From positions 1-50,679 of IMG/VR virus record IMGVR_UViG_3300032218_003909: 50,679 bases of DNA, one strand, 5' to 3'. Numbering within the stretch: position 1 is the first letter of the stretch; each line of letters opens with the position of its first letter. The translations under genes were made by a program, and so were the position numbers. Positions 8,298-50,649 of the stretch are shown piece by piece. The stretch is from a virus (lineage: Duplodnaviria; Caudoviricetes). The notes beneath the pieces were generated by a model, which had not been told where the DNA came from, ran no database searches, and saw nothing but the letters and a program-made list of their open reading frames with translations.

Positions 8298-8312
8298 ATG
8301 TTGTTTATTAAG

Positions 8313-8347
8313 AAAAAAAGAGCCCTAGGAAAAAATACCCTAGGGCT
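8313..8347 (-). terminator. Intrinsic terminator
   Basis: 9-bp stem AGCCCTAGG/CCTAGGGCT (8321-8329, 8339-8347) followed on the minus strand by CTTTTTTT. Confidence 0.8.
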
Positions 8348-8440
8348 ATTTAAAGTTTGCAATTCAGGAGCTAGAGAGAATTGCAAATACCTACTCGCAT
8401 AATTGCTATGCGACATAGCATTCCGCTAAGCGGAATTCGG
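8313..8440 (-). ncRNA. Candidate small regulatory RNA (stacked hairpins ending in a terminator)
   Basis: Hairpins at 8420-8436, 8395-8413 (alternative 8404-8420) and 8356-8387 (10-bp stem, loop UCUCUAGCUCCU), then the terminator. Confidence 0.5.
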
Positions 8441-8476
8441 TTAAAATTCTATTGATTACGACAACAGCAATCTGTG

Positions 8477-8575
8477 TCACGGACGTATACCTTGCTCTGC
8501 ACCGTTGATGCACATTGTGTGAAAGAAATTGCTGCCATCAAGTATAATTTCATATTTGAAATTCTCAGAACTCAT
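8477..8575 (-). CDS. Possible 32-aa peptide
   Basis: MSSENFKYEIILDGSNFFHTMCINGAEQGIRP with AAGG and a TAAATA box upstream. An overlapping 34-aa frame (8449-8553) is an alternative. Confidence 0.3.
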   Translation of the reverse strand: MSSENFKYEIILDGSNFFHTMCINGAEQGIRP

Positions 8576-8599
8576 CGAAAAGAACCTTTAATATTTATT

Positions 8600-8911
8600 C
8601 TAGCCTACAGTGTATTCAACTAAATTTATTCCGGCTTCTTTAATAGCTAGCTCGCACACAGGACAAGGCCTAGCTAATTTTGGATTACCCTTTGAGTCGT
8701 ATCGTTCGATCTTGATCTTATAAGCATCGCCACTTTTGCACTTGACCAATGCACTGATTTCAGCGTGCAAGAACATTCGGTGAGGCATATTAGCACGAGC
8801 TGCATATCGAGCCTGAGTTGGATGAGTCTTGGTATAATGATTGCGTCCTATGCTCAAAATACGTCCTCGTCTATCGTAAACCGTCGCAATCAATTCTTGG
8901 CGTGTTTTCAT
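8600..8911 (-). CDS. Cytidine/deoxycytidylate deaminase-like Zn protein
   Basis: HAE...PCPVC motif, 103 aa. Confidence 0.85.
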   Translation of the reverse strand: MKTRQELIATVYDRRGRILSIGRNHYTKTHPTQARYAARANMPHRMFLHAEISALVKCKSGDAYKIKIERYDSKGNPKLARPCPVCELAIKEAGINLVEYTVG

Positions 8912-15266: not shown

Positions 15267-15321
15267 AAATCCTCATATATAATCGAATGTCCAATATTTA
15301 TTGTGACATACATGTCGAGCT

Positions 15322-15395
15322 AGATTATTGCAAGGCGTTAGATCTGTCAAGCGGTTTAATAACCGCTTGACTACTACCAGAACTAAGTATACAGT
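15322..15395. promoter_or_regulatory. Divergent promoter pair with -35 boxes in an 11-bp inverted repeat
   Basis: GTCAAGCGGTT-taat-AACCGCTTGAC (15346-15371). Minus: TTGACA-N17-TAATCT. Plus: TTGACT-N17-TACAGT. Confidence 0.6.
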
Positions 15396-15423
15396 GATCA
15401 ATCAATTATGAGTGTCAATTAAT

Positions 15424-34516: not shown

Positions 34517-34591
34517 TGGTGCCCCCACTCTGAATTGAACAGAGATTTGATGATTACAAGTCAACTGTAATAGCCATTATACGATAGGGGC
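34517..34591 (-). tRNA. tRNA-Thr(TGT)
   Basis: GCCCCTA/TGGGGGC-A-CCA; loop CT-TGT-AA. Confidence 0.9.
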
Positions 34592-34602
34592 TTTTTAAGC
34601 AG

Positions 34603-34676
34603 TCGGGGTGGAGAGATTTGAACTCCCATGTTGTCCTGCTCCCAAAGCAGGAGGCTTGCTATTAGCCCACACTCCG
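34603..34676 (-). tRNA. tRNA-Pro(TGG), atypical D-arm, no encoded CCA
   Basis: CGGAGTG/CACCCCG-A; CCTGC-TT-TGG-GA-GCAGG; TTCAAAT loop. Confidence 0.8.
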
Positions 34677-34689
34677 TATTTTTAAAATT

Positions 34690-34765
34690 TGGCTCCAGTG
34701 GCTGGTTCTGCCCCAGCATATGACGGATTAACAGTCCGCTCTCCTTACTATTTGAGTACACTGGA
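34690..34765 (-). tRNA. tRNA-Asn(GTT), non-canonical T-loop
   Basis: TCCAGTG/CACTGGA-G-CCA; CT-GTT-AA; T-arm GCTGG-GGCAGAA-CCAGC. Confidence 0.85.
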
Positions 34766-34789
34766 ATATTCTTTACTTACCTATACTTA

Positions 34790-35080
34790 TCAAGTTCAAA
34801 GATTGGGCACATAAAATCTGCTTTCCAACTGTGGACCATTGACAATGTGAACGTCTTCACATATATAGTCTTATGCTGCTTTATTGTTGCACATCTTAAC
34901 TTTCAACAACAGCATAAGATTTTCCCGGCATAGCTAATACTTTTTAGACTTTAAAATCTCTAGAACGCCTCGGAAGTATCCGATACTATTTTTTTAGGGC
35001 GCAATGATGTGATTGTCTGTACTCGTACTACCACTAGTAGCAAATGTCTGCCTTGGACTGTGCCCAATCTCTGAATTTAA
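34790..35080 (-). ncRNA. Unknown ~290-nt structured RNA
   Basis: Terminal 17-bp stem UUCAGAGAUUGGGCACA/UGUGCCCAAUCUUUGAA (one G-U pair on the minus strand) encloses several internal helices. No plausible ORF. Confidence 0.7.
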
Positions 35081-35113
35081 ATTTTTGCATATATTGTATG
35101 TATTTGCAATAGT

Positions 35114-35383
35114 CTATAATGCCAAAAGAAACGCAGTGAGTTCAGTTTCTTGCATAAATCCAATATACAAACACCAACTAATATTAGGTCTTTTATTAGA
35201 GTTTCTTGGTGAGAATGTTACGTAATGATCATTTTTATTGGGCCATTCTCTGCCATATAATTTTTCCAATCTTTTTTTTGCAGTGAGGGCTTCTTTGCTC
35301 CACATATCTTCAAAATATATAGCTTTGCTAATTCCATGATTTTTGCGTAGGTTAAATCGTAGATCTAGTTCTTTTACTTTCAC
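35114..35383 (-). CDS. Hypothetical protein
   Basis: 89-aa ORF, GTG start with AGGAG upstream. Confidence 0.65.
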   Translation of the reverse strand: MKVKELDLRFNLRKNHGISKAIYFEDMWSKEALTAKKRLEKLYGREWPNKNDHYVTFSPRNSNKRPNISWCLYIGFMQETELTAFLLAL

Positions 35384-35384
35384 G

Positions 35385-36284
35385 TTATGCTCCTAGAAAA
35401 TCTCGTATCCATGACAAACGCATCTGTTCGTCCATCGCGGTGTACTGATGAATGTTGTCACGAATCGCATCAATCAGCGGATAATATTCTTCATCTATCT
35501 TCTGCTTGACATTGCAATTCATTAGCTTATCCGTCTTCGGTGCCCGCGCCACAAACTTGCTTACCAGGTAGTACGGAGTTTTGATTTTGGTTGCTAGTCC
35601 ATCTTGCGTATAGATTACAAATCCTTCATGATGTACCATCCTGGTCATCACTTGCACTTCATCCATGGTTGTTTGAAATGATTCAGGCTTATAACAACCT
35701 AACTTTACAGCCAAGTCTTGCCATTGAATCAATTCTGCATATCCGTCAACCACTGAATTCCATGAGTTTTCTCGTTGCCCGAGAAAGTACATACCAGACT
35801 TTTCAGACACGATATGGGGATCCCGGGGATGCACACATTCAAACATCAGGGTATAGCCTTCTGCTGCACGAATATTTTCTTGCCACCCAGACCACGGCTG
35901 GTGCGTCAACATCATTTCTCTTGCCATATCAACATATTCAGAATCAATTGAGCCGGTGGTAGATACCAGGATATCATCCTGATACCAAGTCATGGCTACC
36001 ATAAATCCATTGATTTTTCGATATGCAGTTACTATCTGCTTGCTATCAATTTTAGGTGCACGCAGTTCGATTCCATAGTTATAAATCTTGGTGAACGGAC
36101 GAGATATTACATTAAAATGCTTGTCTACTATAGTACCTCGACACTCTTCAAGAAAATCGTTCCACAAGTTATCAAAAAACACTCGTTTCTTGTACTTGAG
36201 TACAAAAATATCCTCTTTTGCGGGCTTCATGGACACTAATTTGGGGTTGTCCTGCACAAACCGTGCTAACGCCTGCTTATCCAT
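35385..36284 (-). CDS. RNA ligase (T4 Rnl1-like)
   Basis: ECRG, PF.KI.N, motif I KINGF, TLMFE, EGFVI, KIK. Confidence 0.85.
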   Translation of the reverse strand: MDKQALARFVQDNPKLVSMKPAKEDIFVLKYKKRVFFDNLWNDFLEECRGTIVDKHFNVISRPFTKIYNYGIELRAPKIDSKQIVTAYRKINGFMVAMTWYQDDILVSTTGSIDSEYVDMAREMMLTHQPWSGWQENIRAAEGYTLMFECVHPRDPHIVSEKSGMYFLGQRENSWNSVVDGYAELIQWQDLAVKLGCYKPESFQTTMDEVQVMTRMVHHEGFVIYTQDGLATKIKTPYYLVSKFVARAPKTDKLMNCNVKQKIDEEYYPLIDAIRDNIHQYTAMDEQMRLSWIRDFLGA

Positions 36285-37634: not shown

Positions 37635-37656
37635 CTCCCGTTTAACTCAACTGTGC

Positions 37657-37732
37657 AGATAGTATAGCAAAACGGTCAGATATTGTCAACCGTTTTTGAA
37701 AAAATATTTTGTTCTTATAAATCAATCACTTA
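37657..37732 (-). repeat. Promoter-module direct repeat, copy 1
   Basis: Near-identical to 37901-37978. TTGACA-N17-TATACT, AAAACGGT/ACCGTTTT inverted repeat, IHF-consensus box at 37720-37732. Confidence 0.9.
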
Positions 37733-37875
37733 CGATTCTGTTTAGGGACAAAGCGGCAGCTCGGAGTTTTACGCAAAAAATCAAGCATAGCGCCGTCCTT
37801 AAACAGTCTCGCCATCTGTATGGCAGTCTTTTTGATGTACAAGGTCTTGATTCCGTTGACTGTGGTGTACTTCAT
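37726..37875 (-). CDS. Small basic early protein (49 aa)
   Basis: MKYTTVNGIKTLYIKKTAIQMARLFKDGAMLDFLRKTPSCRFVPKQNRK, between the two promoter repeats. Confidence 0.6.
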   Translation of the reverse strand: MKYTTVNGIKTLYIKKTAIQMARLFKDGAMLDFLRKTPSCRFVPKQNRK

Positions 37876-37900
37876 ATCAGTGTTTCTCTATTCAGTATAG

Positions 37901-37978
37901 AGATAGTATAGCAAAACGGTCAGATATTTGTCAACCGTTTTTGAAAAAAATATTTTGTTCTTATAAATCAATCACTTA
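37901..37978 (-). repeat. Promoter-module direct repeat, copy 2
   Basis: TTGACA-N18-TATACT; differs from copy 1 by two single-base insertions; IHF-consensus box at 37966-37978. Confidence 0.9.
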
Positions 37979-43250: not shown

Positions 43251-43259
43251 ATTATAATA

Positions 43260-43348
43260 GATCTCCTAGTGCATGGTCAAGCGGAAAGTTGACCATGAGA
43301 CTGTAGACGCATTCCTACGCCTTCCGTGTCAGATTCATCTAGGAGATC
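43260..43348 (-). ncRNA. Unknown ~89-nt pseudoknotted RNA
   Basis: 10-bp closing stem, 9-bp hairpin CATGGTCAA/TTGACCATG, 7-bp loop-bulge pairing. Confidence 0.65.
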
Positions 43349-43354
43349 AAATCA

Positions 43355-43473
43355 ATAAAACATAGTATCCTGGGCATAAGATACTATGTTTTATAGACTT
43401 TACAAGATTCAAAAATCATAAACTAGTATCTAGGTGTATTTCATACTGAGTCGTCCAAGATACTAGGCTATGA
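43355..43473 (-). ncRNA. Two long hairpins sharing a TAGTATC/GATACTA core
   Basis: 15-bp perfect stem at 43355-43394; interrupted stem at 43416-43473. Confidence 0.55.
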
Positions 43474-43482
43474 AAAATTCTT

Positions 43483-43596
43483 CTGGGTTTTTACCACCAT
43501 TGCTGGCTTATCATCCCCCAGGCCGCCCACATTTGCGAGTTTTTATAGTGCTTCGCAGGATCGCGTTCCCTATTTGCACTTTCAGATACTATAAAC
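43483..43596 (-). ncRNA. Unknown pseudoknot plus GNRA-hairpin RNA
   Basis: AGTGC/GCACT, AGGG/TCCT, pseudoknot TGCGA/TCGCA via an A-rich linker; CTGGG/CCCAG encloses GCCA-GCAA-TGGT. Confidence 0.55.
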
Positions 43597-43597
43597 T

Positions 43598-43628
43598 AAA
43601 AACCCCAGGGTGTCTAGTCCTGGGGTTT
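43598..43628 (-). terminator. Intrinsic terminator (putative attenuator)
   Basis: AAACCCCAGG/CCTGGGGTTT stem with TTTTTAGTTT tail, ~160 nt after the promoter and ahead of the tRNA array. Confidence 0.85.
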
Positions 43629-43656
43629 CGATTCGGTATAATCTGTTGATTATATT

Positions 43657-43764
43657 CTAATCGAAACTGCCTCCTGGTTCACTAATATATAATGAACCAG
43701 GTTGACCCAACCAGGCTAATCCTAGTTCAATTTTTTTAACGATATGTTCATTTATTTGTTTCAT
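43657..43764 (-). CDS. Putative 35-aa leader peptide
   Basis: MKQINEHIVKKIELGLAWLGQPGSLYISEPGGSFD with AGGA RBS, between promoter and terminator. Confidence 0.6.
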   Translation of the reverse strand: MKQINEHIVKKIELGLAWLGQPGSLYISEPGGSFD

Positions 43765-43786
43765 GAATTTATTTATCCTATCGTAA

Positions 43787-43814
43787 ATTATACATGTTTT
43801 TTTGAGTTTGTCAA
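43787..43814 (-). promoter_or_regulatory. Sigma70 promoter of the tRNA operon
   Basis: TTGACA-N16-TATAAT; GATAAATA late-like box just downstream. Confidence 0.8.
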
Positions 43815-50573: not shown

Positions 50574-50649
50574 TGGTGCTCCGTGATGGATTTGAACCAC
50601 CGACAACCGGAATATAAGTCCGACGTTCTGACCACTGAACTAACGGAGC
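50574..50649 (-). tRNA. tRNA-Ile(TAT)
   Basis: GCTCCGT/ACGGAGC-A-CCA; TCGGA-CT-TAT-AT-TCCGG; TTCAAAT. Confidence 0.92.

Follow-up and report, generated by a model that had tools for sequence, protein, structure and literature searches.

The tRNA cluster of phage T4 also contains RNAC and RNAD. Both are described as small RNAs of the late class (PMC9697503). Two other RNAs of phage tRNA islands, GOLLD and ROOL, form nanocages as seen by cryo-EM, and in GOLLD the intermolecular L21a bridge is marked by GC/CG covariation of adjacent bases (bioRxiv 10.1101/2024.12.08.627333). According to the same preprint, OLE is a dimer with a kissing loop in which the palindrome switches. On a smaller scale, GACG loops in SL2 of MoMuSV homodimerise through two base pairs (PMC7357161), described for MoMuLV/MoMuSV as two C-G pairs with a stacked A (PMC7357161; PMC516450).

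Here we describe a structured RNA encoded in a 50.7-kb virus record, the whole of which was analysed and is called the window below. Like GOLLD and ROOL, the RNA is phage-encoded, lies near tRNA islands and is richly covarying, and in a structure-based register it shows the adjacent-base covariation by which their symmetric kissing loops are recognised (bioRxiv 10.1101/2024.12.08.627333). GOLLD is far longer, with many members above 800 nt according to this source; GOLLD and ROOL also have five or more bridges, whereas one is predicted for the phage RNA. The likeness to OLE lies in the palindrome-switching kissing loop, which belongs to a dimer in OLE and is predicted in our RNA; OLE is however cellular, while the present family is phage-borne and without Rfam match. 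The GACG tetraloop of MoMuLV/MoMuSV SL-C and SL-D recurs identically in the clade of the window, but the context is unrelated, GACG is found in only the six window-clade members of the family, and any likeness is convergent. To judge from these comparisons, the family may work like OLE or GOLLD.

The gene-like RNA element, its neighbours and its phages

The element was first noticed as an unannotated RNA of a phage tRNA region, large, orphan and possibly of a new class, and strong covariation together with the missing Rfam match bears this description out. Its ends had been said to pair over 17 bp with a 12-bp core (34800-34811/35059-35070). The core pairs perfectly, and the whole helix amounts to 17 contiguous pairs, one of them G-U, on the minus strand. 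This strand (35075-34795) folds with a minimum free energy of -85.3 kcal/mol (z -5.06), equalled by none of 200 shuffles. Both strands fold well (plus strand z -5.29), and the minus strand was assigned because of G-U pairs across homologs and the orientation shared with the tRNAs. Among 31 sampled 291-nt stretches of the window, each compared with 12 shuffles, the element has the lowest z (-6.9); the others range from -2.9 to +3.2. Rfam gave no match to the element at the gathering threshold and two chance matches only at E<=10. Rfam 15, applied as the first-pass annotation had proposed, was likewise negative for the window, where only tRNAs match, and for 10 homolog loci. RNA run X1 (share 0.04) has one contig, 34706-34784 (tRNA-Asn), and none on the RNA or on L144, which weighs neither way.

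Two 78%-identical copies of the RNA came from the RNA-ligase neighbourhood. Scanning viral and metagenome contigs for motifs gave 77, 20, at least 118 and at least 120 loci; nhmmer came next, where 73 of the 263 fetched loci reached E<1e-20 among the matches listed. Once two truncated loci and duplicates had been dropped, at least 37 distinct sequences remained, and L373 and L403 brought the number to at least 39. The RNAs measure 250-290 nt, and identity within the family spans 47-100%. The window is 48-75% identical to the other members and falls into a six-member clade (support 99/99), separate from the major clade of 33; judged by these values, its RNA is a divergent member of the family.

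Several features of the element are gene-like. A sigma70-type match of at least 9/12, ending no more than 22 nt upstream, is found in 21 of 38 members, compared with 30 of 870 control sites, and nine further members begin 1-18 nt after the 3´ end of a tRNA. The site in the window is under this threshold and uncertain; the same site also scores 8/12 in L002. In L064, a terminator-like hairpin with a U-run follows directly after the terminal helix P1. Fetched flanks of 29 of the 37 members contain tRNA genes, which often abut the RNA, and the downstream neighbours differ among members (tRNA-Thr, -Leu, -Asn and several ORFs). The tRNA-Pro and tRNA-Thr of the window are likely co-transcribed. The tRNA-Asn of the window has an atypical T arm, escaped both ARAGORN and the Rfam scan of the whole window, and has arms widely different from those of the L002 copy. 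The initial description of the locus had leaned on an RNA-ligase operon. The ligase gene does adjoin the RNA in the window, but this is so in only 2 of 37 distinct members; as the gene is also absent from all three near-complete carriers, we rejected it as a partner of the family. Between the two lies an 89-aa ORF (35114-35383, minus strand) that ends 39 nt upstream of the RNA, belongs to no Pfam family and has no tblastn match in other fetched loci.

The window, with an estimated completeness of 9%, carries 14 tRNAs, many sugar-modifying genes and genes for UvsW and an Rnl1 RNA ligase. Its UvsW shares 72-73% identity with those of three near-complete genomes (G001, G002 and G015; 354-374 kb), the first two of which contain the T4 gp23 capsid gene, and 46-54% with those of the nearest cultured phages (the Phosso, Atu_ph07 and GAP32 group). 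By these protein comparisons, the source is an uncultured T4-like jumbo phage. G001 and G002, both near-complete T4-like jumbo genomes, carry one copy of the RNA each. They have genes for bS21 and IF1 in common (scan of 150 of 268 shared proteins), and an omega-like RNA polymerase subunit is encoded in the tRNA region of G001 (L287:6770-6991). Separately from the structured RNA, G002 encodes a permuted tmRNA of betaproteobacterial type (RF01850, 144.5 bits, L293:11983-12400), which hints at a betaproteobacterial host group.

Several further observations concern the tRNAs and other gaps. Among bacteria, tRNAs with A34 anticodons are rare. In the clade of carrier phages they recur, as tRNA-Ser ACT (L135, L142, L130, L127, L145), tRNA-Thr AGT (L002) and tRNA-Phe AAA (L127). 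The window has a tRNA-Ile with anticodon TAT (50574-50649, minus strand). Upstream of its tRNA-Ile(GAT) lies a hairpin-rich gap (43251-43801, minus strand; z -9.06) with a near-perfect stem of ~22 bp; this gap, unmatched in Rfam and without homolog among the fetched loci, possibly holds one or more further ncRNAs. At 37635-37975 (minus strand), a direct repeat of ~93 bp, 93% conserved in L002/L003, flanks a 49-aa ORF, and each copy has a strong sigma70-type promoter. Terminator-like hairpins occur in the intergenic gaps 8298-8600 (minus strand; z ~-4.1) and 15267-15411 (plus strand; z ~-3.4), both of which fold better than their 12 shuffles.

The covarying fold and a likely distant variant

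Covariation supports a branched fold of 13 helices (Table 1). In the 37-row alignment, the share of cells that pair is 93.5%, while shuffles give 81.7% and slid controls 35-41%; changes on both sides are seen in 48 of 72 pairs. Compared with a tree-aware null of 40 alignments simulated on the tree, seven pairs located in P1, P1a, P3, P4a, P6 and P7 stand out with E~0, and the model contains all of the 14 pairs that score highest.

Starting from the end closure by P1, where both partners vary in 17 of 19 pairs, the chain passes through hairpin P1a (weakly paired in the window itself), P2, a 5-nt YGAAA bulge that we take to be T-loop-like, and P3 to a three-way junction. A single base of P3 is bulged, and one P3 pair occurs as all four Watson-Crick types. 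The first arm of the junction is the P4 domain with P4a, an AGUA/GAA internal loop (presumably loop-E-like), P4b, P5, an optional P6, P7 and a U/A joiner; the second is the P8 domain with P9 and P10. The closing pair of P7 swaps between A-U and G-C. Invariant bases are concentrated in P2/P3, the bulge, P7 and the joiner, and this invariance is partly a matter of ascertainment, because members were found by the very motifs in question.

Table 1. Positions of the structured RNA, its parts and adjacent features in the window
Feature	Position	Strand	Description
Structured RNA	34795..35075	-	~281 nt, from ~35075 (5´) to ~34795 (3´)
P1, 5´ arm	35059..35075	-	terminal helix with 34795-34811 as partner; most members have 16-27 bp
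P1, 3´ arm	34795..34811	-	partner of 35059-35075
P1a	35046..35058	-	3-bp hairpin, conserved 6-nt loop; pair 24-31 covaries (E~0)
P2 and P3, 5´ strands	35031..35045	-	partners 34816-34822 and 34828-34834
P2/P3 bulge	34823..34827	-	5 nt, YGAAA in the family
P4 domain	34936..35029	-	P4a, AGUA/GAA loop, P4b, P5, P7, joiner
P4b	35015-18/34946-49	-	helix of P4 domain
P5	34998-35002/34965-69	-	helix of P4 domain
U/A-rich joiner	34950-57	-	conserved, P4 domain
P7	34970..34983	-	near-invariant 5-bp hairpin, UACU loop
3´ domain	34835..34929	-	P8, P9, P10
P8	34926-29/34835-38	-	helix of 3´ domain
P9	34869-34919	-	long, lineage-specific
P10 hairpin	34845..34862	-	GACG loop at 34852-34855, predicted symmetric kissing loop
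Weak sigma70-like site	35081..35109	-	8/12; -35 at 35104-35109, 17-nt spacer, start ~35074
tRNA-Asn (GTT)	34693..34765	-	30 nt downstream of the RNA; 43.5 bits
tRNA-Pro (TGG) and tRNA-Thr (TGT)	34517..34676	-	downstream of the RNA
T4 Rnl1-type RNA ligase	35385..36284	-	local neighbour

Much of what had been read from the window alone recurs in this model. Homologs support the terminal helix, the GCGCC/GGCGU helix (P5), the UCGGA-uacu-UCCGA hairpin and the GACG hairpin AUGUGAA-gacg-UUCACAU. The long hairpin formed by UCUUAUGCUG and CAGCAUAAGA (P9) gains three double changes and is confined to the window and L002/L003. Pairing of UCCAA with UUGGA and of GACAAU with AUUGUC has to be given up: in homologs these pairs do not form, and the letters fall into other elements, namely the small 5´ hairpin, the T-loop-like bulge and helix P4b. 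The core helices P2, P3, P4 and P8, as well as the tRNA-Asn, are additions to the first-pass annotation.

One more RNA resembles this fold from a distance. L051:1334-1645 (minus strand; G012) is an RNA of ~310 nt between tRNA-Tyr and tRNA-Ala of a T4-like phage whose proteins are 26-38% identical to those of G001, and extra hairpins replace its long P1. Comparison with a model of the P4 domain finds a shared P5/P7 module (E 5.7e-4), and by hand comparison the P2/bulge/P3 module and the three-way junction are also present. L051 is likely a distant variant of the family; a search for its own relatives found none.

Beyond these loci, the 109-position P4-domain model matched neither six cultured relatives (Atu_ph07, Phosso, 2.275.O, XbC2, GAP32, PA5oct) nor LR756504.1 and seven records (G006-G011, G013); the best E across all of them was 0.97, for a model of the P4 domain only, which distant members may escape. 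A blastn match in LR756504.1 and a tandem hairpin in L267 were judged to be chance. In GTDB genomes, a single motif pattern gave 71 matches, none of which extends to the full RNA. When three members were compared by blastn with 50,697 phage records, which served as the sequence comparison with T4 RNAC/RNAD, no match covered more than 14%. Exact patterns of the 5´ end (2 matches) and the P9 loop (27 matches) of the window met with chance matches and L002/L003 only, because both parts are lineage-specific. Over 140 kb of G001/G002, Rfam 15 matched none of GOLLD, ROOL, OLE and raiA.

In the literature, with subscription journals outside the coverage, no description of the family was found, and a search with its motifs gave no paper. 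The IMG/VR RNA candidates of Fremin 2023 reach at most 151 nt, and three of the six supplements listed there hold no match (PMC10690425); a fragment of the family may be present in that catalogue. Having neither an Rfam match nor a description found in print, the family is, on this comparison, new.

Predicted self-pairing of the P10 loop

The loop of P10 has a central dinucleotide which is GC in 31, CG in 6 and AU in 2 of the 39 members, and thus self-complementary in every one. Three changes are needed on the tree, each of them altering both bases, and single-change intermediates are absent. In ~98% of bootstrap trees the AU members represent two separate events, and the loop of L373 differs from that of L066 by the exchange of GC for AU only. 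Adjacent bases of one strand cannot pair with each other. Among the 32 unambiguously aligned rows (without L174 and the window clade), one adjacent pair switches, while any switching pair arose in 3 of 200 simulated alignments; none of the other adjacent pairs (of 253) switches like the P10 dinucleotide. Within the window clade, the P9/P10 region has a single invariant run, GACG, which sits on four different stems, and the matching loop of L051 has a CAUG palindrome.

The equivalence of GC and CG depends on a structure-based register counted from the closing pair, since MAFFT sets the CG of the window clade one column upstream. L174 needs re-registering, and L373 is the only unambiguous switch of P10. 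The bases flanking the dinucleotide are often non-complementary, which restricts the contact to 2 bp. One intramolecular site, on the 3´ strand of P5, is pair-compatible in all three dinucleotide groups, and its change is accounted for by the pairing of P5. The UUUAAA joiner was ruled out as a dimer palindrome, as it is not conserved.

Because adjacent bases of P10 switch together, we predict that the RNA self-dimerises through this loop, as OLE and GOLLD do, a prediction for which we see the chances as evenly balanced.

Possible roles of the RNA

We suggest the following course of events. The RNA would be transcribed from its own promoter or within the tRNA operon, and would be released by the host nucleases responsible for maturation of the flanking tRNAs. 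Its long P1 would shield both ends, and the invariant P2/P3/P7 core would pack via T-loop-like, loop-E-like and A-minor contacts. Kissing of P10 with P10´ would then give a dimer or a higher oligomer. At the end, by a guess, the assembly would bind and hold, during takeover, a translation or RNA-defence protein of host or phage. A conserved, single-copy, multi-helix RNA, likely discrete and stable, which kisses a second copy by two predicted base pairs and likely acts as a scaffold in trans, is the reading that we prefer with a little less than even confidence. That the scaffold binds protein is our best guess; that it holds or sponges proteins of translation or defence is a guess based on the shared bS21, IF1 and omega genes.

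A rather unlikely alternative is a compact raiA-like monomer whose P1a loop is engaged in an intramolecular pseudoknot, with either P10 or the linker as partner, and which serves as ligand or decoy of a host protein. The P1a loop is highly conserved, and in 31 of 39 members two Watson-Crick pairs could join it to P10, in 27 to the linker and in 37 to either, and a compensatory P1a-linker change is present in L196. Yet no single partner of P1a fits the whole family, and neither of the two fits in L373 and L403. P10 switched to AU twice while P1a stayed GC, and not one P1a pseudoknot pair exceeds the tree-aware null. The raiA motif RNA is similar in size to our family and has a different helix order. 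Its multi-junction fold contains a T-loop and it is itself a monomer (bioRxiv 10.1101/2024.12.08.627333); it is cellular. The phage family lacks an Rfam match.

The frequent adjacency of tRNA genes may also speak for a new ribozyme, or for an RNA that processes or binds tRNA on behalf of the phage tRNA operon, like an analogue of RNase P or T-box gripping the tRNA elbow with T-loops. Core pairs that never vary and T-loop-like strands, as observed here, are typical of catalytic or tRNA-binding RNAs. We still regard this as improbable, for in many members the RNA has its own promoter away from tRNAs, and the motifs of such classes are missing. Consensus motifs were searched in the 39 members, and none was found of RNase P CR-I or CR-V, T-box, hammerhead core or group II domain V (0/39 each; RNase P and group II also unmatched in Rfam). 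In comparison with RNase P, the gap from P2 to P1 on the 3´ side is only 2-4 nt. The strand following the loop-E-like motif, the candidate specifier, is paired (pair 54-168), which leaves no specifier codon.

Other classes fare similarly. The first-pass annotation had recognised neither RNase P nor SRP nor tmRNA, rightly so with regard to hallmark motifs: the tmRNA T-arm and SRP helix 8 motifs are found in 0/39 members, tmRNA is also negative by ARAGORN and Rfam, and the letters resembling SRP include a base that covaries in P3. The Y RNA motif too scores 0/39, and a TROVE gene is found in 0 of 5 carrier records, while 2 of 14 controls gave a positive result. As for group I introns, an R-like motif occurs in 2/39 members and a short S-like motif in 28/39, nearly always without R partner, and the RNA is intergenic; a permuted group I core was rejected, its motifs not being conserved even in L002.

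A very improbable reading assigns the RNA a function in cis alone, be it as a processing stem, a leader or a spacer within the tRNA operon, or considers it a selfish relic, in either case without action in trans. The long P1 does resemble an RNase III-type processing stem; against varying downstream neighbours, however, the 13-helix fold and the invariant core are kept at 47% identity, and the fold is found in single copy per genome and also in a distant T4-like lineage. Least probable is a 6S or Ms1 analogue that binds RNA polymerase and, together with the omega subunit encoded by the phage, redirects transcription. An omega-like gene is found no farther than ~2 kb away in 12 of 37 loci and occurs in 3 of 5 carrier records, but this co-location could be mere synteny, omega was not detected in the complete carrier G015 or in the window (a fragment), and the covarying fold is branched, not a rod with central bubble, and unmatched by Rfam 6S and Ms1.

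Returning to the kissing scaffold in trans, its boldest form, which we put forward only tentatively, would be an oligomeric machine made of RNA only, ~260 nt in size and present in at least two distant T4-like lineages, that joins by a two-bp kiss, has converged on the retroviral GACG motif and holds host factors of translation or defence. Natural RNA homo-oligomers are rare. The RNA is small, which makes it easy to transcribe and accessible to cryo-EM, and it offers natural GC, AU and CG loop variants for a direct test of whether it dimerises as predicted and how specifically. What the present analysis adds is the clade of the window, the likely distant variant L051 and the testable prediction of a dimer. 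The findings bear on the function of the RNAs of phage tRNA islands, such as GOLLD, ROOL and T4 RNAC/D, and its occurrence in phages that also encode bS21, IF1 and an RNA polymerase omega subunit points to a layer of host takeover, made up of RNA, that has gone unrecognised.
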